Notes: generated by a model not told the origin, from the letters alone. Positions 3,108-42,966 are shown, counted from the first letter of the stretch. The stretch is 64,000 nucleotides of DNA from a virus (IMGVR_UViG_3300028797_000009:1-64000); one strand, 5' to 3'. Made by a program: numbers and translations.

Positions 3108-3138
3108 TTTTTTATCCTTTCTTTTACTTTGATATTTT

Positions 3139-3169
3139 GATTATATATGAAAATTGACTATACTTCAAG
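3139..3169 (-). promoter_or_regulatory. sigma70-like promoter of the conserved family (minus strand)
   Basis: Reverse complement: TTGAAGtatagtcaaTTTTCATATATAATcaaaat ... AAAGAAAGGATAAAAAAATG. Confidence 0.45.
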
Positions 3170-3706: not shown

Positions 3707-4328
3707 TTTTCTTTGCTTTCATCCTAGCGATTAACTCGGCTTTACGGTTTGAACTATCTTTAATAATTTGTTCCGCTTCCGAATCGGTGAATTCTAGATT
3801 ATTTAAGTCAACATCAAGTTCTGGATAATATTGTTCAATAGCCATTTTCTCCCAATCTTCCGTTTTGTATGGGTTAGCAAAATCTGGAAGTTTTGGCTCC
3901 GTTGCGAAAGTCTTGAATTCGGTTAATGGGTACCATTGATTTGGGATATAGTAGAGATAACGACCAATGCCAAACTGAACTGCCGCCCTCTTTAATGCGT
4001 CCGAACAACCACCTTTGAATGGGGTGACTTTCTCGGTGTATTCGCCACCATCTGATTTTGTAATCCAAGTTCCGTCTGGCATACGAATACTTAATTCGCA
4101 AACTACACCTTTTTCGTATGGTGTCATTTTACATTGCCAGCCATTGATTCCGCAGACATCATCTAGTCTTTTTTGGACTTCACGGGAATCAATATAGAAA
4201 AGGGCGATTCCTTTTTTCTTATCTTTTGATGTAGCACCGACACGATATTTTACAAACTTCGGGTCGAATGGGTTTTTGAGCGCTTTGAGTAGTGCTTGCT
4301 CTGCTGTTAATTTTTCCGTTTCTTTCAT
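3699..4328 (-). CDS. Single-strand annealing protein, Rad52/Sak-like
   Basis: 209 aa. ALFYIDSREVQKRLDDVCGINGWQCKM resembles the Rad52/Sak core. Paired with the exonuclease immediately downstream, as in two-component recombinase modules. Confidence 0.5.
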   Translation of the reverse strand: MKETEKLTAEQALLKALKNPFDPKFVKYRVGATSKDKKKGIALFYIDSREVQKRLDDVCGINGWQCKMTPYEKGVVCELSIRMPDGTWITKSDGGEYTEKVTPFKGGCSDALKRAAVQFGIGRYLYYIPNQWYPLTEFKTFATEPKLPDFANPYKTEDWEKMAIEQYYPELDVDLNNLEFTDSEAEQIIKDSSNRKAELIARMKAKKND

Positions 4329-4459
4329 CTTGGTTGCCTCCTTTATTTTGTTTCTATTATAAAGTATTTTTGAAAATTTGTAAAGTTTAAGAGAAAAGCG
4401 TAAGTTGAATTATCTCTGTTAATCATTTATAATGGGATAAAGTAAGTGGGAGGTAAAAA

Positions 4460-5263
4460 ATGATGGAGGAAAGCCATCAAAGAGAACTAAAAGGGATTTG
4501 GATTCCGATAGAGATATGGGATGATGAAAACCTAACGAGGTTAGAGAGAGATTTGTGGGCAGAGATATTTCAATTGGATGGGGAAGAAGGGTGTGTGGCG
4601 AGTAATGAATATCTTGCGAAGGTTTTGAGGTGTGATAAATGTTCGGTAACAAAAGGTATATCCAAGTTGAAGAAACTTGGTTATATTTTTCAGGAAAGTT
4701 TTGATGGTCGGGTAAGAGTATTGCGAAGTAGTTATAGATTGCAGGTATCGGTGAAAAGTAGTAGGCAGAGTAGGGAAAAGTCAGTAGGCAGGGTTGGTGA
4801 AAATCAGTACGCAGGGTCGGTAAAAAGTAGTAGTATAGAATATAATATAGAAAATAGATTAGAGAATAGTTTAGATAATTCTAATATAACGTCAGAAATT
4901 AAAATTTCTGATGGTCCTCGGAAAAAAGAATTGCCAGAAGAAGCATACAATTTGGCAGAACACTTGAAGGATAAAATTTTAGAACATCAGCCAACAGCGT
5001 GTATTAATCGAAATTATCGTGAGAGTTGGGCAAAGGATTTTGAAAAGGCACACAGGTTAGATAAAAGAGATTGGGATAAGATGTTCACGATGATTGATTT
5101 CTGTTTTGATGTGAGTGATTTTTGGGGACCTAATATTCGAAGTGGTGCGAAATTAAGACAGCATTATGACCAGATTGAATCGCAGATTCAGCGATATGTG
5201 AATAAAAATGGAACGATTGTAGTAGGGCAGGGAGATATTGATTATTCTTCCCCTCTGTTTTAG
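4460..5263 (+). CDS. putative replication initiator / replisome-organiser-like protein (N-terminal winged helix)
   Basis: 267 aa. N-terminus WIPIEIWDDENLTRLERDLWAEIFQL...LAKVLRCDKCSVTKGISKLKKLGYI looks wHTH-like. First rightward gene after the divergent promoter region 4329-4459. Confidence 0.3.
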   Translation: MMEESHQRELKGIWIPIEIWDDENLTRLERDLWAEIFQLDGEEGCVASNEYLAKVLRCDKCSVTKGISKLKKLGYIFQESFDGRVRVLRSSYRLQVSVKSSRQSREKSVGRVGENQYAGSVKSSSIEYNIENRLENSLDNSNITSEIKISDGPRKKELPEEAYNLAEHLKDKILEHQPTACINRNYRESWAKDFEKAHRLDKRDWDKMFTMIDFCFDVSDFWGPNIRSGAKLRQHYDQIESQIQRYVNKNGTIVVGQGDIDYSSPLF

Positions 5264-11211: not shown

Positions 11212-12084
11212 ATGCAGAAAATCATAATGTTGAAAGGATTGCCGGCTTCGGGGAAGAGTACTTGGGCTAGGCAAATGGTGCTGGATAATACCTCATTTGT
11301 GAGGGTTAGCAAGGATGATATTAGAAAAGATTTCTTGGGGGCTTATTCACAAAAGAAAGAGAAATTAGTCTTAAAATTGCGGGATTGTATTATTTTAGAA
11401 TCATTGAAAAACAAAAAGAGTGTGATTGTAGATGATACAAATTTGAACCCTATTCACGAGGAGCATTTAAGACAACTAGCAAAAGAAAATAATGTTGGGT
11501 TCGAGGTGAATGAATCCTTCCTAAAAGTAAGCCCAGAGGAGTGTGTAAAAAGAGATTTGGGCCGTCTAGATTCGGTTGGGGAAAGAGTCATTTATAAGAT
11601 GTATTATGATTATCTTGCCCCTGACCCGATTGTAAAAATTGAAAAAAGCAAAAAACCACGCTGTGTAATCTGTGATATTGATGGGACTTTGGCTCATAAT
11701 TTGAGTGGAAGAAATATCTATGATTACAGTCGGATTAAAGAAGATACCCCTGACCCATTGGTCTGTGCTGTGATTGACGCTTTGGATTTTACTTTTGGTG
11801 AGGATTATTTAGATATTATTATTGTTTCGGGTAGGGATGATTCCTGTCAACAAGAAACAGAAGAATGGTTAGAGAATAATGATATTCCTTATACCGCCCT
11901 GTTGATGCGTGAAACTGGGGATAAGAGAGATGATGCTGTTGTAAAAGAGGAAATCTATCATAAATATATTGAGCCGAATTATTGTGTTCTTGGCGTGATT
12001 GATGATAGGAATCGAGTAGTGCGTAAATGGGAATCGTTAGGCCTTAAAGTGATGAAGGTAGGAGGTTTATATAATGAGTTCTAA
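11212..12084 (+). CDS. pnk: Polynucleotide 5'-kinase / 3'-phosphatase (T4 Pnk-like)
   Basis: 290 aa. N-terminal P-loop LKGLPASGKSTWARQM is the kinase part. C-terminal HAD motif CVICDIDGTLAHN (DxDGT) and later VSGRDD form the phosphatase part. Architecture matches T4 Pnkp. Confidence 0.75.
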   Translation: MQKIIMLKGLPASGKSTWARQMVLDNTSFVRVSKDDIRKDFLGAYSQKKEKLVLKLRDCIILESLKNKKSVIVDDTNLNPIHEEHLRQLAKENNVGFEVNESFLKVSPEECVKRDLGRLDSVGERVIYKMYYDYLAPDPIVKIEKSKKPRCVICDIDGTLAHNLSGRNIYDYSRIKEDTPDPLVCAVIDALDFTFGEDYLDIIIVSGRDDSCQQETEEWLENNDIPYTALLMRETGDKRDDAVVKEEIYHKYIEPNYCVLGVIDDRNRVVRKWESLGLKVMKVGGLYNEF

Positions 12085-14443: not shown

Positions 14444-15070
14444 ATGAAAAGTCTTAAAGACGTTAAGATGGGTTGGGTAGCAGTTACCGCCATCGTTTCT
14501 TATGCGATTATCGCCGTGGTTACGGATATGTTCGCAAATAAAATGTTAAACATAGGTGGTCTAACCCTTGCTGGTGGTATTCTTTTGATTCCATTCAGTT
14601 TTACGATTAGGGATTTGATTCACAAGCAAATTGGCTTCAAGAATGTGAAGAAGGTAGTATGGGTTACTGCTTTAGTAAATCTTGTAGTAGCAATTTTGTT
14701 AATTGTTTTGGATTTGATTCCATCGGCGGTTCCTGGGCAACAGGAAGCATGGCATTCCCTTATGGGTGCTTCGTGGCGAGTAATTATTGCGTCATTTATT
14801 GCTCAGTTAGTGGCTGACCTTGGTAATACCTATGTCTATCAATGGGTGTGGGATAAATTAGGTAATAAACATGTATGGTTGAGAACTGTGGTTTCTAACC
14901 TTCCAGCAACATTCTTGGATTCAGCATTGTTTAGTTATATTGCCTTCTTGGGTGTATTGCCAGCAGATATTATCTGGGCTTCGGTGTTAAGTTCGTTCTT
15001 GGTAAAGTATGTGTTGTCGTTAGTAGCAACTCCGTTGACATATTTGAGCGAAGATAAAAAGAAGAAATAA
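14444..15070 (+). CDS. YhhQ/DUF165-family queuosine-precursor (preQ0/preQ1) transporter-like membrane protein
   Basis: 208 aa, multi-TM. DMFANKMLNIGGLTLAGGILLIPFSFTIRDLIHKQIG resembles the YhhQ core. It sits directly upstream of the queC/dpdA genes. Confidence 0.5.
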   Translation: MKSLKDVKMGWVAVTAIVSYAIIAVVTDMFANKMLNIGGLTLAGGILLIPFSFTIRDLIHKQIGFKNVKKVVWVTALVNLVVAILLIVLDLIPSAVPGQQEAWHSLMGASWRVIIASFIAQLVADLGNTYVYQWVWDKLGNKHVWLRTVVSNLPATFLDSALFSYIAFLGVLPADIIWASVLSSFLVKYVLSLVATPLTYLSEDKKKK

Positions 15071-15095
15071 AACTAACTAATCTGGGGTATAATTT

Positions 15096-15368
15096 ATGGA
15101 TATTTTAGAAATTTTCGGTTTATTGGCTACGATTACGGTGTTCGTATCGTTTTTGCCAAAAAATATTAAGTTTATTAGATGGGCGAATTTAATTGGAAGT
15201 GTCTTTTTCGTAATCTATGGTTTCGGGATTGGTGCTTTTTGGACGGGCTTTATGAATGCTTGTTTGATTTTCGTTCAGTTGTATCATCTATTTAAGATTT
15301 ATAAAGGAGAGAAAAAGTGCCAGGCAAAATCAACTCGCTCTCGGAAGAAGAGCAAAAAAGTTATCTAA
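15096..15368 (+). CDS. small membrane protein (hypothetical)
   Basis: 90 aa with two hydrophobic helices; overlaps the next gene by 52 nt. Confidence 0.35.
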   Translation: MDILEIFGLLATITVFVSFLPKNIKFIRWANLIGSVFFVIYGFGIGAFWTGFMNACLIFVQLYHLFKIYKGEKKCQAKSTRSRKKSKKVI

Positions 15369-15694
15369 ATAATACTTATGGGATTTCCTCAATTAAATTA
15401 TATGAGGAGATTCAACATAAATGCCCTCTTGGTGAGCAAGTAGGTGTCACAAAATATGAGATGACAATTCGCCCAGGTAAGAAGTTGGCTGAATTTATCG
15501 CTCTCCATTGGGAGATTCAAGAGATGATGGGACAAACCTTTACGCTTGAAAGTGGTGCGGCGAGAGTAATGGAAATTGTTAAAAAGTATTATTCAGACGC
15601 AAAAGAGATTAAAGTAAAAGCATCCTGCCCAACGAATAGGCATATGGCAGTTGATGTAGAAGTGGAATATAAGAATGAAAGTTCAACTTTATAG
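15317..15694 (+). CDS. QueF-like T-fold protein (possible QueF-L type)
   Basis: GTG start with aaaggagag RBS. HKCPLGEQVGVTKYEMTIRP lines up with the QueF CP.TGQPD...IEYIP region, but the E(S/L)K(S/A)hK NADPH motif is absent, as in QueF-L. Confidence 0.3.
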   Translation: MPGKINSLSEEEQKSYLNNTYGISSIKLYEEIQHKCPLGEQVGVTKYEMTIRPGKKLAEFIALHWEIQEMMGQTFTLESGAARVMEIVKKYYSDAKEIKVKASCPTNRHMAVDVEVEYKNESSTL

Positions 15695-16382
15695 TGGGGG
15701 GATGGATTCTTGGTTAATTAGCCATTTATGGAAGCCAGACTTAAAAATCTATATTGATATTCATGGGGATTATAGCGAGGCAGAAAAGAAAAGGTTGCCG
15801 GATGATGTAAAGATTATCGATATGCCACTTTTGGGGGAATTTGAATTACCAAACAAATTCGTTCCGTTGAGAAATCTCTATTTTATAATGATTGCTTCTC
15901 ACTATGGTGATGAGATTTGTCTTGGAGCAACTGCTGGTGATGGTAGTAAAGATAAAAATCTCGACTTTTTGAATTATATGGAAGATTTGCTCAACTTCTT
16001 CTGGAATGATAAAAAAGTTCATAAGACACTAAAAGTTGAGAAGAGATTTGCGAAGATGAGTAAGGGGGAGATTCTTCGGGAGTATCTAAAAATGGGTGGT
16101 TCGATTGAGGATGTGAGGAGAGAGTCTTTCTCTTGTTACACCCCTATTGATGACAAAGAGTGTTTTGATTGCTATCCTTGTTTCCGTAAGTTCGCTATGC
16201 TTCTTGCGAATGGTTGCGAGTATTCAGATGAAGAAATGGCGAAGATGTGGGATTTTGTCCAAAGAAAAATTATCCCAACAAAAGAGGAAGGCGGGTACGA
16301 AGGTACTTACTATACTGACCGTGGAGAAGAAAGTAAGGATTTGATAAAAGCAGTTGAAATGCTTAAAGAAAAGTATGCCTAA
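15675..16382 (+). CDS. queC: 7-cyano-7-deazaguanine synthase QueC-like
   Basis: 235 aa. PP-loop VQLYSGGMDS. C-terminal zinc-binding cluster CYTPIDDKECFDCYPCFRKFAML (four Cys, as in QueC). Confidence 0.7.
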   Translation: MKVQLYSGGMDSWLISHLWKPDLKIYIDIHGDYSEAEKKRLPDDVKIIDMPLLGEFELPNKFVPLRNLYFIMIASHYGDEICLGATAGDGSKDKNLDFLNYMEDLLNFFWNDKKVHKTLKVEKRFAKMSKGEILREYLKMGGSIEDVRRESFSCYTPIDDKECFDCYPCFRKFAMLLANGCEYSDEEMAKMWDFVQRKIIPTKEEGGYEGTYYTDRGEESKDLIKAVEMLKEKYA

Positions 16383-16710
16383 AATCGTAGCGATAGATTA
16401 TGATGATACCCTGACGGAGTATAGGCCGTTTCCAGAAACTGCTCCGTTCAGGGAAGAGGTGTTCGATTATATCCCCTTGCTAGCCGAGAAATACACGCTT
16501 GTATTATGGACGGCTCGTGAGGGGGTTTATTATGATGAATGTGTTAAGAGATTAGAAGAAGTCGGACTTTTAGATTATATTCAGTTAGATAATGATAAAT
16601 TCAAACACGGTAAAACTGGGAAAATTGTAGCCGATTACTATATAGACGATAAAGCCCTCTTTGGTATAATTGACTGGAAAGAAATTTATGAATATCTGAT
16701 GGAGGTTTAA
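16354..16710 (+). CDS. small HAD-superfamily phosphatase-like protein
   Basis: 118 aa. Motif I IVAIDYDDTLTE (DxDxT); later VLWTAREG. Confidence 0.4.
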   Translation: MKCLKKSMPKIVAIDYDDTLTEYRPFPETAPFREEVFDYIPLLAEKYTLVLWTAREGVYYDECVKRLEEVGLLDYIQLDNDKFKHGKTGKIVADYYIDDKALFGIIDWKEIYEYLMEV

Positions 16711-17531
16711 TGCTTTTATTCTTTGCTGGGGCTGAGGGGGATGATTTTGTAAAAATACTTCGGGATAATGGTGTTACTAATGCTCTCGAAAGTTTTTGGT
16801 CTCTAAAAATGAAGAACCCATGTCATCATCGTATATTTGAGAATCATCTGTTGGATTCGGGTGGTTTTGCTGCTAGGCAGCGTGGTGTGGAAGTTGATGT
16901 CGTAAAGTATGCTGAATATATTAAAAAATATGATGTGAAGTTTGCGTTTAATCTGGATGTGCGTGATTTAGATATTAGTTTGGCTAATCAGCGTTATTTA
17001 GAGAAGAATACTAATGCGTATATTATTCCGATTTATCACGGTCCGGAATGGGTGAATGAAGATACTAGGGATTTGTTGGAGTATTATATCGAGTTCTATC
17101 CATATATCGGGCTTGGTGGTATTGCTGGGAAAGAAACTGGTAAGCAAAATTTGGAGAGGTTTCTAAATTATGTGTTCAAGAGGACTAGGGACAAAACTAT
17201 GGTCCACGGCTTAGGTGTTACAAGTAAGAGGATGTTATATAATTATCCATTTGCGACTTGTGATTCTACGAGTTGGCTTGCCGTTAGCCAATATGGGAGA
17301 AGTGCTGTATATAGCGAAAATATGAGCAGGGTTCGTAACAAGCGTTTGAATTGGAAAGAGCGTATATTTGATGATGTTGTCTTTTATAAAAATTTGAATG
17401 ATGAGATTACGAGAATTTGGAAGAAAAGAGGGGTAAATTGGGGGGATAAATTAGACTATGAAAAATTAATTTCTATGAGGAAAGAAGCACCAAGTTATAG
17501 AGAATGGAAAGAAGGAAGAAATGCGAAATAA
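16710..17531 (+). CDS. dpdA: tRNA-guanine transglycosylase-like protein (DpdA-like 7-deazaguanine DNA transglycosylase)
   Basis: 273 aa. HLLDSGGFAA matches the TGT catalytic DSGGFQ motif; YIGLGGIAG matches the TGT substrate-pocket GLAVGG. No CxCxxC..H zinc site, as in phage and bacterial DpdA. Confidence 0.6.
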   Translation: MLLFFAGAEGDDFVKILRDNGVTNALESFWSLKMKNPCHHRIFENHLLDSGGFAARQRGVEVDVVKYAEYIKKYDVKFAFNLDVRDLDISLANQRYLEKNTNAYIIPIYHGPEWVNEDTRDLLEYYIEFYPYIGLGGIAGKETGKQNLERFLNYVFKRTRDKTMVHGLGVTSKRMLYNYPFATCDSTSWLAVSQYGRSAVYSENMSRVRNKRLNWKERIFDDVVFYKNLNDEITRIWKKRGVNWGDKLDYEKLISMRKEAPSYREWKEGRNAK

Positions 17532-21557: not shown

Positions 21558-22235
21558 ATGGGAACAACTAAACAAGGTGCTTTTGAGATGAAATATCATC
21601 ATATCGATGCACCAACAAAACAAGATGATGAATATGGCCGAGAACATCATAAAAGGATTTTAAGTCTTAATGATTTCCGAACGCCGTTATTAGAATATTT
21701 GAGCGATAAACCGTGGATTATGAAGCGTAAATTGGATGGCGAAAATTTGCGTGTTATGTGGGATGGCGAGCAAGCATTGTGGAATGGTAAAAGCGATAAT
21801 TTCCAATGTAGTTCGGCTTTAACGGATTATATGAATAATACTTTTCTTGAAGAAGTTTTTGAGGAAAAGTTTGGTCGAGATAAGCGAGTTTATATCTTCG
21901 GTGAGCATATGGGTCCGAAGTCGCAGGGGAATGAATTGGGATTAGGAAATAGTGAATGTGTTATTTATGATGTAAAGGTTAATGGCACTTGGTTAAAACC
22001 ATTGGATATTATTAGTGTGGCAGGGTATTTTGGGTGTAAAACTTGCTACGATTTTATGGGTGATATTCCAATGGATTTGAGTAAGACATTATCTGAGTAT
22101 ATTGCCGAGGTGTCCTCGGGGATTTATAAAGATTGGGAGGGGATTGTTTGCGTCCCATTAGTAGAATGCTGTTATCCAACAGGGGAGCGTGTGATTTGTA
22201 AGATTAAAAATAAAGACTATTTGAAAAAGGATTAG
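21558..22235 (+). CDS. Minimal ATP-dependent ligase-family nucleotidyltransferase (RNA/DNA ligase-like)
   Basis: 225 aa. Motif I MKRKLDGENLRV (KxDG), III RVYIFGEHMG, IV WEGIVCVP, V ICKIKNKDY. aaaaggagg RBS. Confidence 0.55.
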   Translation: MGTTKQGAFEMKYHHIDAPTKQDDEYGREHHKRILSLNDFRTPLLEYLSDKPWIMKRKLDGENLRVMWDGEQALWNGKSDNFQCSSALTDYMNNTFLEEVFEEKFGRDKRVYIFGEHMGPKSQGNELGLGNSECVIYDVKVNGTWLKPLDIISVAGYFGCKTCYDFMGDIPMDLSKTLSEYIAEVSSGIYKDWEGIVCVPLVECCYPTGERVICKIKNKDYLKKD

Positions 22236-30657: not shown

Positions 30658-30734
30658 CAGGGAGTAGAAAAGTTGGAGTTTTCGCCTCGCCTGGAACGAG
30701 GAGGTCGCAAGTTCAAGTCTTGCCTCCCTGACCA
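30658..30734 (+). tRNA. tRNA, anticodon TGG (Pro-like), atypical anticodon loop
   Basis: Hand fold: acceptor cagggag/ctccctg, A73, CCA encoded; D stem gaaa/tttc; anticodon stem cctcg/cgagg with loop cctggaa; T arm gcaag-ttcaagt-cttgc. C33 and A37 are unusual for tRNA-Pro. Confidence 0.55.
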
Positions 30735-30743
30735 ATATAGATT

Positions 30744-30820
30744 GGCTCGCTAGCCCAACTGGTAGAGGCATATGTCTTAGGAACATATTAGTCAGAGTTC
30801 GAATCTCTGGTGAGCCACCA
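30744..30820 (+). tRNA. tRNA, anticodon TAG (Leu-reading) with a short (class-I-like) variable arm
   Basis: Acceptor ggctcgc/gtgagcc (one G-U), A73, CCA; anticodon stem tatgt/acata, loop cttagga (U33, UAG, G37); variable region only ~5 nt; T arm cagag-ttcgaat-ctctg. Confidence 0.5.
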
Positions 30821-30824
30821 ATAT

Positions 30825-30899
30825 TGGCTAGTAGCTCAATGGTAGAGCATTCGGCTGTTAACCGAAGGGTTACAGGTTCGACCCCTGTCTAGCCAGCCA
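30825..30899 (+). tRNA. tRNA-Asn (GTT)
   Basis: Acceptor tggctag/ctagcca, G73, CCA; D arm gctc-aatggta-gagc; anticodon stem ttcgg/ccgaa, loop ctgttaa; T arm acagg-ttcgacc-cctgt. Confidence 0.7.
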
Positions 30900-30973
30900 A
30901 GGTTCCTAGTTCAATGGTAGAATGAAAGTCTCCAAAACTTTTGATGGTAGTTCGAATCTATCGGAGCCTGCCA
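30900..30973 (+). tRNA. tRNA-Trp (CCA)
   Basis: Acceptor aggttcc/ggagcct (one G-U), G73, CCA; anticodon stem aaagt/acttt, loop ctccaaa; T arm atggt? then agttcgaatct. Confidence 0.6.
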
Positions 30974-33359: not shown

Positions 33360-34781
33360 ATGGATTCTTACTCTATATCCAGAAAACAGCAAAAATTTTT
33401 GGAACTGCTAGAAGATAAGACTCTGATTGAATTATTAGTAGGAGGCTCGGCTGGTGGTTCTAAGACTTTTTGTATTTGTTTGGCAATCCTGCTAACCTGT
33501 AAAAAATATCCAGGGGCTAGGATTTTTGTGGGAAGAAAGACGTTAAAATCTTTGAGGCAATCTACGATTAATACTCTTTTAGGGAAAGTCCATCCTCTTT
33601 TGGGGATTGGGGATACAGAGTTTCATTTTTCCTCGCAAAGTCAGGAATTGTTATATAAGAATGGCTCATTGGTGATTTTTGGTGAATTGGATTATAACCC
33701 ATCGGACCCAGATTTTGCTAGGGTGGGTAGTTTGGAAATTGACATGGCATTTATTGATGAGGCGGGCGAGATTACTCTTCAAGCGAAAAATGCGATTAAA
33801 TCTCGTGTAGGCCGTGGTATTTTGAATTCCGAGTTCGGTATTCCTGGTAAGGTGATTTTGTCCTGTAACCCGAGTATTAACTTTTTAAGGCAAGAATATT
33901 ATGACCCGTATGAAAAACTAGGGGGTGGGGATTTCCAGAAATGGAATATTGGCAAAATGGATATTGACGGGGTAAAACAAGATGTTTTTCGGGGTTTTTT
34001 GAGGATTTCGGCAAAGGATAATCCGTTTCTCCCTCAATCGTATATAGATAACCTCTCCACTTTGCCAGATAGAGAGAGAAAGCGTCTTTTGGAAGGTAAT
34101 TGGAATTATGCCGATGAAGATGACTCGCTATTCAAATCTGGGCTATTAGAAAAGTGTATTGCTTACGAATTGCCAAAGCCGAGTGAAAAATTTAGCAAGT
34201 TTATAGGGGTGGATTTAGCAGATAAAGGTGGCGATAAGACTATCTTTTCTTTGATAGATAATGGCGTGCTTGTTGCTCAAAGAAGGTCTAGTGTTCAGAT
34301 GAATTGGGTAAAGGAGAGCGAATTGCCTCTTTCCAGATTGGTGGCAGATGAATTGATAGAATTCGCCCAAAGAAATGGTTTTAGCCAAAAAGAAGCTCGC
34401 CATATTGCTGTTGAGTGTAATGGTGTCGGCGTAGGGGTAAGAGATTGTTTGAAAGAGCGTGGCTGGTATTTGACGGAGTATATCGCAACGCATAAATCGA
34501 GGTCAGAGGGGTATTATAAGCTGATGTTAGATATGGATTCGGGAAATATAAAGATTATTGAGAATCTAAATGCTCTGGATGAGTTGAGGAAGCAGTTGGC
34601 TGCTCATTCCTACGAGATGGTTAATCAGGAGCCAAGTGTGGTAAAGAAGGATAAAATCAAGCAGGTTGTAGGCCATTCGCCAGATGAGGCAGACTCTTTT
34701 ATGATTGCTAACTGGGTTAAAAACCAGATAACAAATCCAGAAAATGACCCTCATAGGAACCTAAATCGCCTCGGAATTTAG
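33360..34781 (+). CDS. terL: Terminase large subunit
   Basis: 473 aa. Walker A VGGSAGGSKT, Walker B MAFIDEAGE, then a C-terminal nuclease-like region (ADKGGDKT...). Confidence 0.8.
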   Translation: MDSYSISRKQQKFLELLEDKTLIELLVGGSAGGSKTFCICLAILLTCKKYPGARIFVGRKTLKSLRQSTINTLLGKVHPLLGIGDTEFHFSSQSQELLYKNGSLVIFGELDYNPSDPDFARVGSLEIDMAFIDEAGEITLQAKNAIKSRVGRGILNSEFGIPGKVILSCNPSINFLRQEYYDPYEKLGGGDFQKWNIGKMDIDGVKQDVFRGFLRISAKDNPFLPQSYIDNLSTLPDRERKRLLEGNWNYADEDDSLFKSGLLEKCIAYELPKPSEKFSKFIGVDLADKGGDKTIFSLIDNGVLVAQRRSSVQMNWVKESELPLSRLVADELIEFAQRNGFSQKEARHIAVECNGVGVGVRDCLKERGWYLTEYIATHKSRSEGYYKLMLDMDSGNIKIIENLNALDELRKQLAAHSYEMVNQEPSVVKKDKIKQVVGHSPDEADSFMIANWVKNQITNPENDPHRNLNRLGI

Positions 34782-35943: not shown

Positions 35944-36034
35944 AGCAAAATTGCCTCACGAAAGTGGGGCATTTTTTTGTATAAATCGAGTGATAAAATA
36001 ATTCTACTAACAAAAATAAAACAAGGAACTTTCT

Positions 36035-36454
36035 ATGAAAATAGTGTATGAAAAACCAGAGGATGCCACTCCATTTGACTTGGATAGGTATTATAAATCG
36101 TTAAATAGATACGGGAAAGTTCCAAAAGAAATTATTGCGGAAGAGATTGAAAATTTGCGAAACCAGTTTAGCGATACAATCCACGTTTCTTGTCTTGTTA
36201 ATTTAGGTGCTAGGTTAATTGAGGATGAAGATAGGGCTAGGGAGTATTGGGAAGCACACGCAAAGAATCTAGTAGGTTTTGAGAGATTAAGGCGAATTAC
36301 TGGATATTTGGTAGGAACGCTTGACCGTTGGAATGATGGTAAAAAGGCTGAAGAGCGAGAAAGAGTGAAGCATTCTGTCGGTCAATATACAGTAGAAGAA
36401 AAGATTGAGCGAGAGAAGAAGAAACAAGAACAAATCGTAAGTAGTGAGGAATAA
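36035..36454 (+). CDS. hypothetical protein
   Basis: 139-aa ORF. Confidence 0.45.
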   Translation: MKIVYEKPEDATPFDLDRYYKSLNRYGKVPKEIIAEEIENLRNQFSDTIHVSCLVNLGARLIEDEDRAREYWEAHAKNLVGFERLRRITGYLVGTLDRWNDGKKAEERERVKHSVGQYTVEEKIEREKKKQEQIVSSEE

Positions 36455-36478
36455 TTTTCTGCTATACTAATAACTAGA

Positions 36479-37348
36479 ATGAAAAAGGAAAAATATCTAG
36501 CAATTCTAGGCAAAGTTGAAGAGTTAGAAATGGCTCTCAATGGGAATGGAGGAGGTAATCCTAATCACGACGAATTAGGAAGGTTTACTACTGGTCCTGG
36601 TGGTAAAGTTGAAAAAACATCTGGCAAAGGTGAGTTTACTTTGAGTAAAGACGCTCAAAAAGTTTTTGACGAGGTTGATGATTGGACGGATGGTGCTTAT
36701 AAAAAGGATTTGAAGAAAATCTATGACGAGTTTAGTGAACTTGGTGTAGATGTTGATAAAATCAAGTTCGAAACGAATACCAATAAACTGCCAGGTAGTA
36801 TGGGGGATTATATTAAAGTACATAAAAATTTAGGGGGGTGTGCTACTACCAAGAAAAATCTCGAAGCGGTTATCTGGCTAAATAGAGATGACCAAGAAGA
36901 CTATATTCCTATGAGCGGTAGGAAAAAGTATCTCGAAGGCAAAGATGTTAAAGACCAGCCACATGGTGTTGATAGTACTGCTCTGGGGATTATAAGACAT
37001 GAATTAGGGCATATAGTGGCGGCTACTGTGTATATGAATAGTCGTGGTCGAAAAGCAACAGGTGGCTCGTTGAATATGGGTGCCGTGAGGATTGATGCTA
37101 ATCAAAGATTTAAGAAGATATTTGGTAATAATTACGATTATAACAAACTAAAAATGTCTAGGTATGGTTTGACTAACCACGGAGAAGCAATAGCCGAAGC
37201 GTTTTCTAATCCAGATTTTTCGGAGGATACAAGGAAGATTTATGATTATTACAAAAAGGAGTTGTCGAAAATTAAGAGCAAAAATGCTATTGAGAAAGAT
37301 TCTGAATGGATTATTCTTTGTGATGGGTATCCAAAGGACAGAGAATGA
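36479..37348 (+). CDS. Putative head-packaged effector: Gly-rich N-terminal motif plus HExxH zinc-metallopeptidase-like domain
   Basis: 289 aa. N-terminus LAILGKVEELEMALNGNGGGNPNHDELGRFTTGPGGKVEKTSGKG is a variant of the motif shared with 37631, 42929 and 44480. C-terminal region GIIRHELGHIVAA contains HExxH. Confidence 0.5.
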   Translation: MKKEKYLAILGKVEELEMALNGNGGGNPNHDELGRFTTGPGGKVEKTSGKGEFTLSKDAQKVFDEVDDWTDGAYKKDLKKIYDEFSELGVDVDKIKFETNTNKLPGSMGDYIKVHKNLGGCATTKKNLEAVIWLNRDDQEDYIPMSGRKKYLEGKDVKDQPHGVDSTALGIIRHELGHIVAATVYMNSRGRKATGGSLNMGAVRIDANQRFKKIFGNNYDYNKLKMSRYGLTNHGEAIAEAFSNPDFSEDTRKIYDYYKKELSKIKSKNAIEKDSEWIILCDGYPKDRE

Positions 37349-37650
37349 TAGTATTCTATACAGCGTCATGTGAGGGGTGTTCTGGTAATAGAGCATTGGC
37401 AAATATGAAGGTTCGCTGTGAAAAAGCAGGTCTAAAATTCCAAGAGAGGCGAACAATCTTCTTTTATGTGTTTGAAAATGAGGCAAATGAGATAATGGAA
37501 AAGTCTGGGGTAAAACTACCTTTCTTCTATGGCACAGAATCGGGGAATGTTTTAGTAGGGAATTCGTTTACTCCACTTGATGATATAGATAAACTAATTG
37601 ATGCTGAATTAGAAGCACAGAAAGGCAAAGATGAAGAAACAGGTCTATGA
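37345..37650 (+). CDS. thioredoxin/glutaredoxin-like CxxC protein
   Basis: 101 aa. VFYTASCEGCSGN (CxxC at the start of helix 1) and KLPFFYGTESGNVLVG (the cis-Pro and GG region of glutaredoxin-like folds). Confidence 0.4.
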   Translation: MIVFYTASCEGCSGNRALANMKVRCEKAGLKFQERRTIFFYVFENEANEIMEKSGVKLPFFYGTESGNVLVGNSFTPLDDIDKLIDAELEAQKGKDEETGL

Positions 37651-38254
37651 AGAACTATCTAAAAAGGTGGGTATCTTAGATGTATTGATAAATGGGGGAA
37701 AAGGAAGTGGAAATTTTGGGCATGCCGGTCGTCCAGGTAAAAGAGGTGGCTCTGGTAAAGGTGGTAAAGGTGTCGGAGCGATGGTCCGTGGGGTGAAGTC
37801 TTATAACCCTGATGAAGAGATGGATGGTGGCTTTACTGTGAATATAAATAAAGGCAATTCTTATGTCCTAGGAGAGTCTGAGGGCTTCGCTGTGGGTGGT
37901 TTTGGGACAGAGAAGATTGTTGATAGTAAAGACTTCCTAAATCCGAAGAAACGAATGAAGATTTTAAGGGATTATTACAAGGAGAATGAAAAAGCATTAA
38001 AAGAGAAAGGGGCTTGTCTTGGCGGTTGGGTGCCTTCGAGCGGGGACTTAAAAGGTAAATTAGTGCTTGATGTTTCTAGGGTGTTTAAGAGTGAAAAAGA
38101 GGCGGCAAAATGGGCTGTTAAAACTGACCAAGATAGTATTACGGATTTCAAGGGAGTAGATTGGCCATCGACAAAGGACTTGGTTAAGAAGTATGGTTTA
38201 GAGAAAGAAGCGGAAAAATCCAAAGGGATGAGAGCCGCTGAAAGAAATGCTTGA
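37631..38254 (+). CDS. Putative head-packaged protein with the conserved Gly-rich N-terminal motif
   Basis: 207 aa. YEELSKKVGILDVLINGGKGSGNFGHAGRPGKRGGSGKGGKG; the remainder is uncharacterised. Confidence 0.45.
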   Translation: MKKQVYEELSKKVGILDVLINGGKGSGNFGHAGRPGKRGGSGKGGKGVGAMVRGVKSYNPDEEMDGGFTVNINKGNSYVLGESEGFAVGGFGTEKIVDSKDFLNPKKRMKILRDYYKENEKALKEKGACLGGWVPSSGDLKGKLVLDVSRVFKSEKEAAKWAVKTDQDSITDFKGVDWPSTKDLVKKYGLEKEAEKSKGMRAAERNA

Positions 38255-38306
38255 TTTTCCAGAGTTTTTCGTTTATAATGTTTATTAATATAAGTTAAAG
38301 GGTAAT

Positions 38307-38543
38307 ATGGCAAGGAAAAAGTCAGATAAGCAAGAATGGATGAAAGTTCCTGATTGGTTGAAAAAGGTTAGCGATAAGGAAGTTGCTAGTTCGGTTTTTG
38401 CTATTATGTTCAATTGGGAAATGTCTGGTCCAGATGAGTTTGACGATTTGCGTGAATACATCAAAGATATTTTTGACGATTTGAGTGATAAGCAGGTTGA
38501 TGAAGTTGCTGATTTATTGATTGAGCATAAAGTGGTTGAATAA
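38307..38543 (+). CDS. hypothetical acidic protein
   Basis: 78-aa ORF. Confidence 0.4.
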   Translation: MARKKSDKQEWMKVPDWLKKVSDKEVASSVFAIMFNWEMSGPDEFDDLREYIKDIFDDLSDKQVDEVADLLIEHKVVE

Positions 38544-38667
38544 TTCTTGTTTTTGGTTTATAATAAGATTGTTCGGATTATTTATTAATTTATAATCTGA
38601 ATCTTGTATGTATTGCAGAGAAGGCTCGTGAATTGCGGGCTTTTTCTGTTATTGCTAAAATATTAGT

Positions 38668-39204
38668 ATGAAAAAGTTGCCAGTATGTAAAATTTGTGGT
38701 GGCCCACATTATGCCTACGCCTGTTTTAGAAATCCGAAGAGAAAATCGGCATTTAAGGCTCATTTTAGGGGCGTAGAGCGAACTAAACAAAAAAAGATGG
38801 CTAATGGTACGTTCACGGCACAAGACCGTCGTAAAGATTTGATTTATAAGTTAGATTTGGCGGTTAGTAGATATGTTCGCCAATATTATGCCGATAAAAA
38901 CGGGATTTGTACCTGCTACACCTGTGGAAAGAGGGTTCCTTGGAAGGGGGCTGATTGTTCGCATTATATTTCTAGGAGGTTTAATGGGACTAGGTTCGAT
39001 TTAGATAATCTTCGGGTATGTTGTCAGTATTGTAATCGGATTCTACATGGTAATTTAGATGAATATAAGAAGCATCTAATTAAAGATATTGGTAAAAAGA
39101 GAGTTGACGATTTGTGGGTAAAGAAGGATAAAAAAATTACGACACCGGAGCTGGAAGAATTACTAAAAAAGTACCAAAATCTCTTGAAAAATATGCACAA
39201 GTGA
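38668..39204 (+). CDS. HNH endonuclease
   Basis: 178 aa. N-terminal CKICGGPHYAYAC. HNH core CSHYISRRFNGTRFDLDNLRVCCQYCN..LHGN (His, Asn, Asn, and a CxxC pair). Confidence 0.6.
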   Translation: MKKLPVCKICGGPHYAYACFRNPKRKSAFKAHFRGVERTKQKKMANGTFTAQDRRKDLIYKLDLAVSRYVRQYYADKNGICTCYTCGKRVPWKGADCSHYISRRFNGTRFDLDNLRVCCQYCNRILHGNLDEYKKHLIKDIGKKRVDDLWVKKDKKITTPELEELLKKYQNLLKNMHK

Positions 39205-39244
39205 TTTATAATTATAAATGTAAAGTATTAAAAGAAAGGAATTT

Positions 39245-39568
39245 ATGGCTAGAAATGAAATTCTTACCAAAAACAAATATAAAGAGATAAAACAATATCA
39301 GAAGAAAACGGGTAAAGATAATAAGTCCGTTTCGGATAAATTTGGTTATAGTTTAGCGACTATTAGCCGTATAAGAAGTTCGAATAACTACAAAGGTTAT
39401 AAAGCCAAAGTTCAAGCAAAGAAACCTGCGGCGGAAAAAGAATTGGAAGAGTTCTTGAAAAATCCGAAGGTTGATGAGTCTTTGGAAGAGTTGGCGGCTA
39501 AATTTGTAGGTAAGCAAAAGAAGGCAAAGCCGACATTTTGGCAGAAGTTAAAGGCTCATTTCTGCTAA
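39245..39568 (+). CDS. small HTH DNA-binding protein
   Basis: 107 aa; SVSDKFGYSLATISRIRS is a helix-turn-helix. Confidence 0.4.
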   Translation: MARNEILTKNKYKEIKQYQKKTGKDNKSVSDKFGYSLATISRIRSSNNYKGYKAKVQAKKPAAEKELEEFLKNPKVDESLEELAAKFVGKQKKAKPTFWQKLKAHFC

Positions 39569-39596
39569 TTAGAAATAATGCTATAATAAGGGCGAA

Positions 39597-39878
39597 ATGG
39601 ATAAAGTAGCCCTTATTTTTATATCGATTCTTGGTTTTTGGAAAATTTACGATTTATTTTTTCCAGAGAAAACTTCTTTGGGGAAGAAATTGGTTAAAAA
39701 GATTATCGAGTATAAACTTCTCAAGGCCTTCTATAAAGATTTTATATACGATATAATAAATAAAGATACAGTATCTCGACAAACGCTAGATGAATGGCTT
39801 AATGTTGAGTACGAATCTTGGCTTGCTACAAAGGTAAAATCGGGTGAGTTATCTGATATAATTAAAACTAAAGAGTAA
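39597..39878 (+). CDS. hypothetical protein
   Basis: 93-aa ORF with a hydrophobic N-terminus. Confidence 0.4.
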   Translation: MDKVALIFISILGFWKIYDLFFPEKTSLGKKLVKKIIEYKLLKAFYKDFIYDIINKDTVSRQTLDEWLNVEYESWLATKVKSGELSDIIKTKE

Positions 39879-39894
39879 TGCTTGCAGGTGCTAA

Positions 39895-42800
39895 ATGGGA
39901 ATTAGAGAAAAAATTGTAAATGCCCTTGGCGGAACTGTGGCCAAGAAAACCACGAATACTGCTTACGGGAATGATTTTTTGAAGTATGGGAATAGAGCTA
40001 ATCCTCTTGTTGGGGATTGGTCAGAGGTGAAGATTTCTGATGAGGATATGTATAAAGGGTATTCCTACGCAGTAATCCAGAAACGAGGTAATAAAGTTGC
40101 TTCTTTGGCAAAGTCTAATCTAAAAACTTGGGCAAAACCAGAGGTTGTTGATGCTTATCAGAAGAAAAATCAAACTCCGTATCATCCGTATTTGAAATTG
40201 ATTGAAGATTCGAAAAAGTTTACAACCAAGCAGTTTTATAAAAATATTTCTATTTATCTTGATTTAGCTGGTGTGTATTTTTTGGGTGTAGTAAGGGCAA
40301 AGCGTGAATCTAATGATAAAACGAAGTTCCCTGATATTATTACTGACGCAAAAGAATTTATTATGCTCAACCCATATGAAATACGTAGGGTTGTAAACAA
40401 AGATGGTATCGTGGCTGGCTATATTGAGCGAAAGAAAGATGGTCGTTATCGTGAATGGCCGAAGCATATGATTATCGAGATGAAGGAGTTAAATCCTTTC
40501 GAGAGTGAAAAGAGCCAATGGTCTATGACCGATGCGGCGAAAGAGGCTGTTTACACAATCAACCAATCTGCCGATTATACTCGTCAAAGTTTGAATGGTA
40601 ATATCGAAGCACCTGGGATTATTACCACGGATGTGATTTTGACGGATGAGGATTTTGCTAACTTCAAGGCTCGTGTTCAAGAGCATAAGAAGGGTGAACC
40701 TCTATTTGGTAATGGTGCTGGTGCTATTAAGTGGGATTCAATGCAGGTTGATTTGGATAGAGCCGCTTTAATGGATATTAACGAGATTAATAGGACGACC
40801 TTATTCGCAGTAAGCGGTACTTCTAAAACAGCATTAGGCATTGAGCAAAGTGGCACCACTAGGGATACGGCAAATGTCCAGCGTGAGCAGTTGATGAGTG
40901 ATACGATTCAACCTCGTTTGGAAGATATTGTGGATTTCTTGAATTTGGATTATCGTCAGATGTACCCTCGTGAATATGAAACAACTGGGTACTTGATTGA
41001 AGTTGAGAGTGCTGTGAGCCGAGATTATAGCACGGAAACCGCCGCTGTCGGTATGCGTGAGGCACAATTTAATCTGTTCAAATTGGTTGCTGATTCGGGT
41101 TATACTGACGAGTCCGCTGTCCAATATGCTGATGGTGAGATTGAACTTTCTGATTTGGAAGTTGACGAAGAGAAGAAGAGAAAAGCCGAAAAGCAAGCCG
41201 AAGCGATGGTAAAGATTCGTGAAGGCGGTAGTAATGATGATGAAGAGCAACCCGATGGCGGAAATAACCCGTCAGATGATAATGGTGGTGGGGGTAATTC
41301 TCCAAAAACTAGTGGGGAAGAGGACGAGGAAAATAGTCTAGATGGCTATGAAAATATTCCCGGAACGCTTGGTGAATTAGTCAAGATGGATAAAGAGTTG
41401 TCTAATAATGATACTGAGTGTGAGGAAGAGGGTGAGTGTCATAAACCTGCCCCTGTTCAAGTCTATGAGAATGATTTGAGCGTGGTAGATGTAAAAGTAT
41501 TAGATGAGAGTTATAACGCTTTTTTAGACCGTGTTAAAGAAGTCCAGAGGGAAACTCTAAGGGCTTCTGAAACTAAACTAACAGTAAATGCTTTCACAGA
41601 AAACGATATTATCACTGAGAAGAAAAAGAAACAGCTTACTGAAAAGTTGAAAAATGCTCTAAAACAATATTGGTGGATTTTGGTTCCTCTATTTGGTACT
41701 AATGCTGTAAACCAGCGGAATAATGAGTTCGGCGAGAATTACGTCTTTAAATTTACTAATGAGATGAAGGGTATCGTAGAGGATAACGCTCAAAGAGTGG
41801 CCGAAGGTCATATGGAAACAATTTTAGATGATGTCTTATCTGCGAGTAATGCCGCTTTCACAAAGGTAGTAGAAACTGCTGCTGGTGAATTATTGATTAA
41901 GGCGTATAAAGCAAGTCCAGATAAGTATGCCGATTTCTTCGACCATATTCCAACGATTGACGAAGCAATTCGTGTGATTAGGAAAACGGATATTTTGGAG
42001 CGTAATCGTAAGATTTATGAAAAAGCCAATAAGATGGCTCGTGAAGGTTATGACCGTCAAAAAATTATAAAGTCTATCCGTGAAGAGTATAAGGAAGTTG
42101 GGCAGAATAGGGCAATCTTAATTGCTCAAAATGAAACTTCTAGGGCATTTGGTAAATCTCAATATGAGGCTGATTATCAGTTCTTGAATTCAATTGGAAA
42201 ATTACAGAATGCTTATAAAGAGATGTATAGCCGAACTGGTAATCCTTGTAAATACTGTAAGGCATTGATTGATAAAGGCCCGATTCCGTTCACAGAGAAT
42301 TTCTTGAATAAGGGCGAATCGATTACCGTAAACTCCAATGGTAAAGTATCTACCTTTACCGCTGATTATGAGGCAATTGAAGGTGGAAATGTCCATCCTA
42401 GGTGTTTCTGTTCATATAGGTTAGTGTTCAAAGATAATAAAGTGGAGAACGAAAATGGTGTCAGGGCAAGTTTACTTGATGGCGGGTATAATTTGTCTAC
42501 TTGGATTGGTAATAATGCTTTTGTTAGGGAGCAGGAAAAGGAAATAAATACTACTGTCGATATTGTGGATGGTGAAAAAACTATTCATATTGATTTGGAT
42601 GATTTAGAAGAAAAGAAAGAAGAGTCCGAAGAAGTAAAAGAGGTAGAAGAAACTTCGGAGATTGAGCCAGAAGTTCCAGATGCGTATTTCGAAACAACAT
42701 TTGTGGGTGATGATTATAAAATGCCACTTGATGAAGAGGGTGAAGCAAGAATTCAGGCTATTCGTGATGGTATTAACGAGGAAAAGACGGTTATGCCGAT

Positions 42801-42966
42801 TATTTGCCGAAGAGTTGAAGAAGGCAAATATGCTGTCGAGGCTGGTCTTGAAAGATTAAGGGCATATTATTTGGAGAAGAAAGAACCTGTTATTAGGTCA
42901 TTTACCACACCTCAGGATTGTTTGAAGTATGTTGAGGAACACGCCGATGAATTTGAGATTGTCTAG
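39895..42966 (+). CDS. Giant head protein: portal-like N-terminal region, acidic Gly linker, MuF (SPP1 gp7-like) head-morphogenesis domain, and an extra C-terminal domain
   Basis: 1023 aa. A linker ~aa 440-480 (DDEEQPDGGNNPSDDNGGGGNSPKTSGEEDEENS) separates an N-terminal ~440-aa region from a MuF-like region carrying the hallmark NPCKYC...(34 aa)...HPRCFCS motif. About 170 aa of unknown function follow. Confidence 0.5.
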   Translation: MGIREKIVNALGGTVAKKTTNTAYGNDFLKYGNRANPLVGDWSEVKISDEDMYKGYSYAVIQKRGNKVASLAKSNLKTWAKPEVVDAYQKKNQTPYHPYLKLIEDSKKFTTKQFYKNISIYLDLAGVYFLGVVRAKRESNDKTKFPDIITDAKEFIMLNPYEIRRVVNKDGIVAGYIERKKDGRYREWPKHMIIEMKELNPFESEKSQWSMTDAAKEAVYTINQSADYTRQSLNGNIEAPGIITTDVILTDEDFANFKARVQEHKKGEPLFGNGAGAIKWDSMQVDLDRAALMDINEINRTTLFAVSGTSKTALGIEQSGTTRDTANVQREQLMSDTIQPRLEDIVDFLNLDYRQMYPREYETTGYLIEVESAVSRDYSTETAAVGMREAQFNLFKLVADSGYTDESAVQYADGEIELSDLEVDEEKKRKAEKQAEAMVKIREGGSNDDEEQPDGGNNPSDDNGGGGNSPKTSGEEDEENSLDGYENIPGTLGELVKMDKELSNNDTECEEEGECHKPAPVQVYENDLSVVDVKVLDESYNAFLDRVKEVQRETLRASETKLTVNAFTENDIITEKKKKQLTEKLKNALKQYWWILVPLFGTNAVNQRNNEFGENYVFKFTNEMKGIVEDNAQRVAEGHMETILDDVLSASNAAFTKVVETAAGELLIKAYKASPDKYADFFDHIPTIDEAIRVIRKTDILERNRKIYEKANKMAREGYDRQKIIKSIREEYKEVGQNRAILIAQNETSRAFGKSQYEADYQFLNSIGKLQNAYKEMYSRTGNPCKYCKALIDKGPIPFTENFLNKGESITVNSNGKVSTFTADYEAIEGGNVHPRCFCSYRLVFKDNKVENENGVRASLLDGGYNLSTWIGNNAFVREQEKEINTTVDIVDGEKTIHIDLDDLEEKKEESEEVKEVEETSEIEPEVPDAYFETTFVGDDYKMPLDEEGEARIQAIRDGINEEKTVMPIICRRVEEGKYAVEAGLERLRAYYLEKKEPVIRSFTTPQDCLKYVEEHADEFEIV

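Follow-up and report, generated by a model that had tools for sequence, protein, structure and literature searches.

The viral sequence IMGVR_UViG_3300028797_000009:1-64000, a stretch of 64,000 nucleotides (nt) referred to here as the window, contains at 39895-42966 a single open reading frame (ORF) that we interpret, with a probability of roughly 0.78, as a natural, selected fusion in which a phage portal is joined to a MuF-type head protein and to a small ParB/sulfiredoxin (Srx)-like domain. We hold the architecture itself, that is, the presence of portal, MuF and ParB/Srx parts in one protein, with high confidence. The features of the ORF lie far beyond chance, and the whole architecture is kept in hundreds of metagenomic homologues. 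A preliminary description of this DNA, made from the sequence alone, had reported an ORF of 1023 amino acids (aa) at this position, and its coordinates and length agree with our analysis; the start codon is ATG. The ORF lies 5.1 kb downstream of the terminase gene terL, a synteny shared by relatives (features are listed in Table 1).

Residues 1-425 matched the HK97-type portal family PF04860 (Phage_portal; aa 88-369, 52.7 bits against a curated cut-off of 39.1, E 4.8e-14) and the profile phrog_2662, annotated 'portal protein' (E 1.7e-19), which bears out the earlier suggestion that the ~440 aa ahead of an acidic linker are the portal. This is the best conserved part of the protein, with a mean identity of 87% among 12 close relatives; in distant relatives, similarity to the query stops at about aa 425-490. 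These boundaries, like those of the variable slots described below, were obtained by BLAST mapping, and the family was sampled as its 120 best metagenomic homologues, among which all listed relatives except P0052 (119 of 120) have a precomputed PF04860 match. Comparison of aa 1-440 with the Protein Data Bank (PDB) by phmmer gave no match at E<=0.1. The interval between terL and the fusion ORF holds small ORFs only, a NinG/HNH-like gene among them and the largest of 289 aa, in keeping with the earlier statement that no separate portal gene lies there. The preliminary description would have been overturned by an N-terminal region without portal similarity together with a portal gene elsewhere; instead, the PF04860 match is above threshold, and the other large ORFs of the 64-kb window gave no portal-family match.

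Sequence and model comparisons predict a full-length MuF/SPP1-gp7-like module at aa 515-850. The region contains the conserved RA..IA.NE..RA and CxxC...HPxCxC motifs, represented by RAILIAQNETSRAF at aa 739-752, CKYC at aa 785-788 and HPRCFC at aa 834-839, and the MuF hallmark placed earlier at aa ~790-850 is thus about where it was said to be. The query region matched phrog_2468, 'head morphogenesis', at E 0.0033, and 17 of 24 family members, to which the query MuF is 43-71% identical, individually matched PF04233 (Phage_Mu_F; best E 1.8e-5 to 2.6e-5), with no competing family recurring in more than two of the 24. An AlphaFold2 (AF2) model of aa 515-860, built from a 24-sequence alignment, reached a predicted local distance difference test score (pLDDT) of 84.5 and a predicted template modelling score (pTM) of 0.77. 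Searched against BFVD with Foldseek, this model produced 26 matches at E<=1e-3 (best 5.2e-7, ~320-380 alignment columns); all of the named matches were head-morphogenesis, minor-capsid or MuF proteins, or MuF fusions, and they include two other long portal-MuF proteins (817 and 696 aa). When the profile and the model of this module were compared with solved structures, only non-specific matches came back, mostly to generic helical proteins, and a solved MuF structure appears not to exist. Jamet et al. (2017) also recognise MuF by context, as a protein encoded straight after the portal; here the module follows the portal in frame within the same gene.

The acidic linker that the preliminary description located at ~aa 440-480 has its Gly/Asn/Ser/Pro-rich core, DDEEQPDGGNNPSDDNGGGGNSPKTSGEEDEENS, at aa 448-481 (nt 41236-41337), and linker 1 as a whole contains 27 Asp and Glu residues against 10 Lys and Arg. 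It was this composition that had raised the suspicion that a frameshift, either programmed or introduced in sequencing or assembly, had joined two genes, an explanation for which we found no support and which we regard as vanishingly improbable. The identical 1023-aa protein is present on four contigs from independent assemblies (JGI, Logan and ENA; longest ~85.7 kb), and 12 full-length relatives with 65-97% identity maintain a single reading frame throughout, including across linker 1, where mean identity is 53% and indel columns average 16.6, all in frame. Of the 120 best homologues, 118 or more encode portal and MuF together in a single ORF. These results decide the matter in favor of the natural fusion that had been offered as the alternative. 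A related portal-MuF fusion of 773 aa occurs on a Cellvibrionaceae metagenome-assembled genome contig (PF04860 at 68 bits plus PF04233), and a 726-aa protein in a Mycolicibacterium genome is probably another. No other plus-strand ORF spans 41170-41436, and no plus-strand terminator-like site lies inside it; across 39000..47500 promoter- and terminator-like sites were no more numerous than in shuffled sequence. An internal start at Met497 for a separate MuF product was considered and set aside, the Met not being conserved (Leu in P0003), as was a programmed frameshift into the downstream ADP-ribosyltransferase (ART) gene: a slippery site of the form X XXY YYZ is absent from the 20-nt overlap, and gene calls in relatives treat the same overlap as a normal start.

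After the MuF core, about 173-184 residues remain. The preliminary description had counted ~170 and proposed a possible effector or toxin; the size stands, and the equivalent slot holds ARTs and other enzymes in relatives, but the tail here is a ParB/Srx-fold domain, and a toxin role is only partly supported. Assignment of aa 930-1023 to the ParB/Srx fold comes from modelling and sequence: AF2 predicts a beta-alpha-beta-beta-alpha-beta-alpha arrangement at pLDDT 80-90, and the top 49 Foldseek matches in the PDB are all ParB, Noc, PadC, KorB, sulfiredoxin, SbnI or SerK (best E 2.5e-3, probability up to 1.00), among them ParB and Noc bound to cytidine triphosphate (CTP) or cytidine diphosphate (CDP). 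By sequence, Pfam ParB_N (PF02195) scored 14.1 bits against a cut-off of 26.3 (E 0.049), ddrB-ParB gave no match, and no match rose above the curated threshold of ParB_N, ParBc_2 or ddrB-ParB. A 12-sequence profile reached ParB and Noc in the PDB at E 0.2-1, with AGxxRLRA aligned to AGERRLRA.

Searching for other copies of this domain with a word-index profile search yielded one 58-aa fragment, and an exhaustive profile search of 1.84 billion representative proteins yielded five remote relatives (P0122-P0126, E 3.5e-6 to 3.5e-4). Four of these five have weak ParB_N or ParBc_2 matches, and in each of the five a DGxHR precedes A-F/Y (as RAFYLE or something close to it). The corresponding query motif, AGLERLRAYYLE, spans aa 983-994, and the query clade, with (A/S)G(L/I/M)(E/D)RLRAYYLE, retains the Gly and the conserved Arg. 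Among the remote relatives, P0126 has the order MuF, intein, leader-like stretch and ParB-like domain, P0124 has an ART-PolyVal domain followed by a ParB-like domain, and the small proteins P0125 and P0123 have a Gly-rich leader at their start. Within the query clade the domain is 39-96% identical, with 28 invariant positions. The protein ends 29 residues past the motif, leaving no room for helix-turn-helix (HTH) or dimerisation domains, and we therefore call this a ParB/Srx-fold domain and not a partition protein. By analogy, it most likely binds nucleotide or DNA.

The family as a whole consists of a constant portal and a constant MuF, with a variable region between them and a variable tail after MuF. 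The first slot, between portal and MuF, is a plain linker in the query and contains inserts of 119-574 aa in 74 relatives; the second, post-MuF slot ranges from 0 to 941 aa, with relatives of 840-880 aa having no tail. Among the 120 proteins we found 34 insert clusters and 53 tail clusters. By Pfam, the insert slot can contain an Acb1-like 2H phosphoesterase (PF23474/PF13563), and the tail slot ADPrib_exo_Tox (PF03496); motif inspection identifies HExxH zincin-like modules in the tails of some relatives. One ParB-like cassette, with a canonical EGRHRLEAAILEG and tagged by the leader described below, occupies the tail slot of P0033 (aa ~1036) and the insert slot of P0037 (aa ~635), so cassettes move between slots. 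Effector-type domains (ParB/Srx in the query; ART, 2H/Acb1 and HExxH in relatives) are fused to MuF/portal among the genes of the packaging module.

Several further observations concern individual relatives. The Acb1-like 2H domain (PF23474, anti-CBASS Acb1, where CBASS is the cyclic oligonucleotide-based antiphage signaling system, or PF13563) lies between portal and MuF in P0067 and P0089, with precomputed matches in most of P0090-P0120 and several others, and such portal proteins likely carry a cyclic-oligonucleotide-degrading enzyme, as judged from their domain matches. Inspection of the MuF motif showed large intein-like insertions exactly before the first Cys of HPxCxC in P0044, P0048, P0066, P0035, P0080, P0074 and P0078, recognised by a starting Cys, a LAGLIDADG-like block and an ending ...SGN followed by Cys; Pfam reported no intein in P0048 at E<=0.01, and the remote MuF protein P0126 has an Intein_splicing match. 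In locus L007, a relative of P0027, a gene at 2660-4612, between terL and portal, encodes 650 aa with ART-PolyVal and Zeta_toxin domains and is one more polyvalent-type cargo gene of this neighborhood. A module with the motif NGR(I/V)HDxxG(Q/K)(F/Y)M(S/T)KAGF forms a separate 114-aa gene after the fusion ORF in L003 (14274-14618) and the extreme C-terminus of the fusion protein in P0021 and P0050, so this element too is fused in some genomes and free-standing in others.

Table 1. Coordinates of the fusion ORF, its parts, its neighbors and other genes of the window.
Feature	Coordinates	Strand	Basis
Whole ORF, 1023 aa: portal, linker, MuF, linker, ParB/Srx-like domain	39895..42966	+	ATG start; 1023 codons
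Portal domain, aa 1-425	39895..41169	+	PF04860 and phrog_2662
Linker 1, aa 426-514; conserved CxC just before MuF; first variable insert slot in relatives	41170..41436	+	Composition, alignment
Predicted MuF/SPP1-gp7-like head-morphogenesis module, aa 515-850	41437..42444	+	Family PF04233 matches, AF2, Foldseek
Conserved post-MuF segment, aa 851-905, poorly modelled	42445..42609	+	Mean clade identity 73%; pLDDT <50
Acidic linker 2, aa 906-929	42610..42681	+	12/24 residues D or E; mean identity 31%; variable length
Predicted ParB/Srx-fold domain, aa 930-1023	42682..42963	+	AF2, Foldseek, weak Pfam
Large terminase subunit (terL), upstream anchor of packaging module	33360..34781	+	PF04466 E 3.9e-8; phrog_2 E 2e-31
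Leader-bearing gene, 289 aa: GNPNHDELGRF variant, then HELGH...EAIAEAFSNPDFS zincin-like peptidase module	36479..37348	+	Motifs; Pfam ATLF (anthrax lethal factor-like) E 7.6e-4, below cut-off
Leader-bearing gene, 207 aa: NGGKGSGNFGHAGRPGKRGGS, then uncharacterised module	37631..38254	+	Motif
Downstream gene, 464 aa, 20-nt overlap with fusion ORF; leader variant GNPYHDKIGRF and C-terminal ART-like module (R / STS / QxE)	42947..44341	+	Homology, motifs
Two-module ORF, 747 aa, leader twice (aa ~28, ~323); second module with P-loop GGCASGKG	44480..46723	+	Motifs
Polynucleotide kinase-phosphatase (PNKP)	988-1989	-	PF25109 E 7.9e-41 and P-loop kinase domain
RNA ligase-like genes, two	11212-12084; 21558-22235		
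QueC-like gene	15675-16382		PF06508 E 1.4e-14
Four tRNA genes (Pro-TGG, Leu-TAG, Asn-GTT, Trp-CCA), just upstream of packaging module	30658-30973		

Most accessory modules in relatives are preceded by a shared leader of ~40 aa, composed of an amphipathic helix and the Gly-rich motif NGGxGSGNFGHxGRPGxxGGS, which occurs 35 times in the insert slot and 60 times after MuF. Some modules carry the variant GNPxHDxxG(R/Q)F, and the Acb1-type inserts have no leader. The window contains five leader copies in the four genes that flank the portal gene, all on the plus strand and each near a module N-terminus (motif codons begin near nt 36557, 37709, 43013, 44561 and 45446). By analogy, the leader could be a capsid-targeting or cleavage signal, which we offer as conjecture. 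Its consensus found no match in phage records by tblastn, perhaps owing to low-complexity masking, and a large protein search with the leader returned only proteins of 37-81 aa, mostly on short contigs. A text search of Iyer et al. 2017 (PMC5512222) did not find a description of it, nor did the literature on Flandersviridae portal and ART proteins.

The genes bearing this leader include likely counterparts of the fused cargo. The zincin-like module of the gene at 36479..37348 is also fused after MuF in several relatives, and the encoded peptidase is a candidate processor of head cargo. For the gene directly downstream of the fusion ORF, whose start at 42947 is also the called start in L010 and L001, aa 276-420 of the 470-aa translation of the ORF share 47% identity with the tail fused in P0062 (E 8e-33), and the same region matches the tails of the PF03496-positive proteins P0061, P0035 and P0024; its own family matches are phrog_3895 at E 1.5e-4 and PF03496 at E 0.015. 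The same cargo is therefore found either fused to portal-MuF or as a leader-tagged neighbor. The two-module ORF at 44480..46723 is replaced in the 83%-identical relative L001 by two separate genes (14640-15503, 287 aa; 15552-16901, 449 aa), and it may be either a genuine fusion or an ORF in which an internal start at Met295 is used. Its second module is possibly of the Zeta-toxin/kinase type, to judge from its motifs.

Portal-MuF fusions and effector fusions to MuF or portal are already established, and the query is a further example of both. Jacobs-Sera et al. 2020 (PMC7302621) described portal-MuF fusions in Microbacterium phages of Subclusters EA3, EA5 and EA8 and of Cluster EB, and such fusions are also documented in PMC5512222, so the fusion is less unusual than the preliminary description had supposed. 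As in the Microbacterium phages, one gene of the packaging/head module encodes a portal and then a MuF-like minor capsid module. Theirs, however, are small actinobacteriophage proteins for which no further C-terminal domain or insert slot is reported (PMC7302621), whereas the query adds two acidic linkers and a ParB/Srx domain and belongs to a family with hypervariable cargo, with no similarity detected in INPHARED. Among effector fusions, 2H, Nudix, ART and PBECR domains joined to MuF or portal have been proposed to be head-packaged and injected (PMC5512222; PMC9503650), and ParB-superfamily, ART and metallopeptidase domains are hubs in the domain network for polyvalent proteins (PMC5512222). 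The query resembles these polyvalent proteins (Iyer et al. 2017, 2022) in that the head proteins MuF and portal are fused to enzymatic domains, but their ParB is DdrB-like, while the query domain has no Pfam match to that family and reads (A/S)Gx(E/D)R instead of DGxHR. In the consulted passages of PMC5512222 we saw nothing that describes two slots.

A capsid-targeting function has been proposed for the MuF domain (PMC11699363), and MuF polymorphic toxins (Jamet et al. 2017, PMC5576092; Bxa, PMC11699363; Apk2) share with the query family a MuF followed by a highly variable C-terminal enzymatic domain and a location beside portal and terminase; a resemblance to Bxa-type toxins is seen in the relatives' ART tails (PMC11699363). 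These toxins are unfused to portal, typically belong to temperate phages or prophages and are followed by an immunity gene, in contrast to the query, which has a portal-fused MuF, a ParB/Srx tail and no immunity gene or lysogeny marker seen. SPP1 gp7 binds the portal (Stiege 2003 and Vinga 2006, as cited in PMC5576092). SPP1 gp6 (portal) and gp7 show the same portal-then-MuF order, a presumed association at the portal vertex and an alignable RA..(I/L)(A/T)ARxE motif; unlike the query, in which the link is covalent and implies 12 copies, they are separate proteins that associate non-covalently, and sequence similarity to gp7 is marginal. With the ParB/Srx superfamily (ParB, Noc and KorB N-domains, PadC, sulfiredoxin, SbnI), the query shares the predicted fold and a Gly-x-x-Arg with following Arg-Ala that aligns with ParB GERRxRA, but it is a minimal version of ~94 aa lacking HTH and dimerisation domains, and the first Arg and the Glu of GERR are not conserved. 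As far as checked, four specifics appear to be new: the joining of portal, MuF and ParB/Srx, the departure of the ParB motif from the canonical form, the arrangement in two slots and the shared leader; as judged from sequences and models, they are mostly traits of the family.

For the leader, the closest analogy may be found in T4. The T4 proteins IPI-III and Alt are head-internal cargo, including an ADP-ribosyltransferase, that share a short N-terminal signal, are loaded into proheads and are injected with the DNA. That capsid-targeting sequence (CTS) is a different short sequence, is removed by the gp21 protease, and the T4 cargo is not portal-fused.

The portal C-terminus (crown) faces the capsid interior. 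Going by established portal structures, a dodecameric portal would hold 12 copies of the MuF and ParB-like domains inside the head, near the DNA end. Where SPP1 MuF must find the portal non-covalently, here the association would be hard-wired, and the portal-MuF backbone would be an integral carrier through which each virion receives its accessory domains. By analogy with the ART, Acb1-like 2H and zincin peptidase domains of relatives and with published proposals for MuF/portal effectors, this cargo would be meant to act at the start of infection, and possible tasks of the ParB/Srx domain are holding or protecting the end of the genome and, once DNA has entered, nicking or binding it. The published proposals that MuF- and portal-fused domains are head-packaged, together with that of MuF as a capsid-targeting domain, would make the ParB/Srx domain an early cargo acting on DNA or nucleotides. 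We lean towards a cargo-carrier function on these analogies, and consider release and injection of this particular domain to be evenly balanced. A fuller scheme is more doubtful and is put forward tentatively: the portal would be a covalent, 12-copy carrier for fast-shuffling, head-loaded counter-defence enzymes; the shared leader would mark every cargo module, fused or separate, as a signal for capsid targeting, cleavage or both, which the zincin peptidase that itself bears a leader might read; and ParB/Srx would be a new DNA- or nucleotide-directed cargo delivered or positioned by the portal.

A number of results weigh against a portal-MuF-ParB/Srx fusion that carries cargo. For the portal, the search for a second gene covered 64 kb of a ~85.7-kb genome, ~21 kb of which lies outside the window, and the ORF found no match among 50,697 INPHARED phage records by megablast and tblastn. 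The lineage has no isolate relative in INPHARED and no cultured relative, so no annotated reference was usable. For MuF, the query region itself has no Pfam match at E<=0.01, the PF04233 matches of relatives fall below the gathering score (best 25.8 bits versus 29.6) and do not amount to strict Pfam membership, and hhalign of the family MuF against single SPP1 gp7 was weak (E 0.0057, probability 6%), with only RA..IARxE aligned. An implied 12 MuF copies per head also contrasts with the 1-2 copies of gp7 per SPP1 capsid (PMC5576092). The ParB assignment depends on sub-threshold sequence matches, a Foldseek E of ~2.5e-3 and a shallow multiple sequence alignment (12 sequences). Moreover, the Asp and His of the canonical DGxHR, or the Glu and Arg of GERR, are replaced in the query clade, so that catalysis is uncertain and the activity may differ from that of ParB-type nucleases. 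Finally, the query fusion protein has no Gly-rich leader or recognisable cleavage motif, and a covalently tethered domain could not leave the capsid.

This last difficulty would be met if the protein were a polyprotein, in which a prohead protease or the zincin encoded at 36479..37348 cuts the acidic linkers after assembly to leave a normal portal, a free MuF and a free ParB-like protein, the latter two being ejected with the DNA. Such processing would refine, and not exclude, the cargo-carrier explanation, and we consider it plausible if still on the doubtful side. The length, acidity, poor conservation and many indels of both linkers are what exposed cleavable spacers would be expected to show; 2.5 kb upstream lies the leader-bearing HELGH module, which relatives carry fused to this backbone; the ART and Acb1 domains of relatives must reach the host cytoplasm to act; and proteolytic processing of the head-packaged P1 proteins DdrB and DarA is documented (PMC5512222). 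On the other hand, the missing leader and cleavage motif count against processing too, the window yielded no identifiable prohead protease, support for the peptidase is weak (the ATLF match in Table 1), and the N4 virion RNA polymerase (vRNAP) is a peptidase-bearing cargo that is packaged unprocessed (PMC5512222). That same missing leader and cleavage motif would be expected if the MuF and ParB-like parts never left the portal crown but instead bound the last-packaged DNA end or a nucleotide there, aiding packaging termination, DNA retention or ejection timing without any host-directed effector. We consider this structural role unlikely, although it agrees with SPP1 gp7 being a DNA-binding, portal-bound head protein for efficient infection and not a toxin (cited in PMC5576092), with ParB N-domains being nucleotide-dependent DNA-clamping modules, as in the CTP- and CDP-bound PDB matches, with the alteration of the nuclease-type DGxHR motif, and with the retention of the domain and its invariant positions across the clade. 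What speaks against it is that the same slot holds plainly host-directed enzymes in relatives (ART, Acb1-like 2H) and that cassettes switch slots, which points to interchangeable cargo; in addition, the domain does not have the HTH DNA-binding domain of a true ParB, and since the relatives of 840-880 aa do without a tail, the tail domain is dispensable for assembly.

A MuF N-terminal region followed by a variable C-terminal domain is also the layout of MuF polymorphic toxins, and the tails of relatives are extremely polymorphic, with ARTs resembling Bxa-type toxins (PMC11699363) and a likely Bacteroidota host range that overlaps that of Bxa homologues. On that basis, the tail could be a Jamet/Bxa/Apk2-type antibacterial toxin with which lysogens attack competitors and which a downstream immunity protein neutralises. 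We judge this improbable. The next gene encodes the 464-aa ART-like protein with its 20-nt overlap and not a small immunity-like ORF; the ORFs scanned showed neither an integrase nor any other marker of lysogeny; a search of 185,579 species genomes for the MuF region turned up no close prophage relatives and two distant loci only; the gene content looks like that of a virulent, counter-defence-rich phage; and the ParB/Srx active-site motif is non-canonical.

If the cargo-carrier explanation is right, an extended portal can carry additional domains within the head, and the family would be a catalogue of candidate virion-delivered enzymes from abundant uncultivated phages, including ADP-ribosyltransferases, Acb1-like anti-CBASS phosphoesterases, peptidases, P-loop kinases and ParB-like domains. 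Were the leader to prove a capsid-targeting or processing signal, head cargo could be recognised in metagenomes by a simple rule on sequence, and the leader would offer a means to load phage capsids with foreign proteins. A practical consequence for annotators is that long 'portal' ORFs such as 39895..42966 should be neither split nor flagged as frameshifts.

The best isolate matches of terL are Bacteroidota phages (Cellulophaga phi10:1, Flavobacterium 11b and Bacteroides phage Versailles) at 27-32% identity, and the family is a large metagenomic group of phages of about 65-96 kb, probably infecting Bacteroidota. Elsewhere in the window, PNKP and the two RNA ligases likely form a tRNA/RNA repair set against host anticodon nucleases, and the QueC-like gene hints at 7-deazaguanine modification of phage DNA. 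It is these genes, together with the tRNAs, that give the phage its virulent, counter-defence-rich appearance. Across 36000..47000, the guanine-cytosine content is about 32-44%, mostly near 37%.

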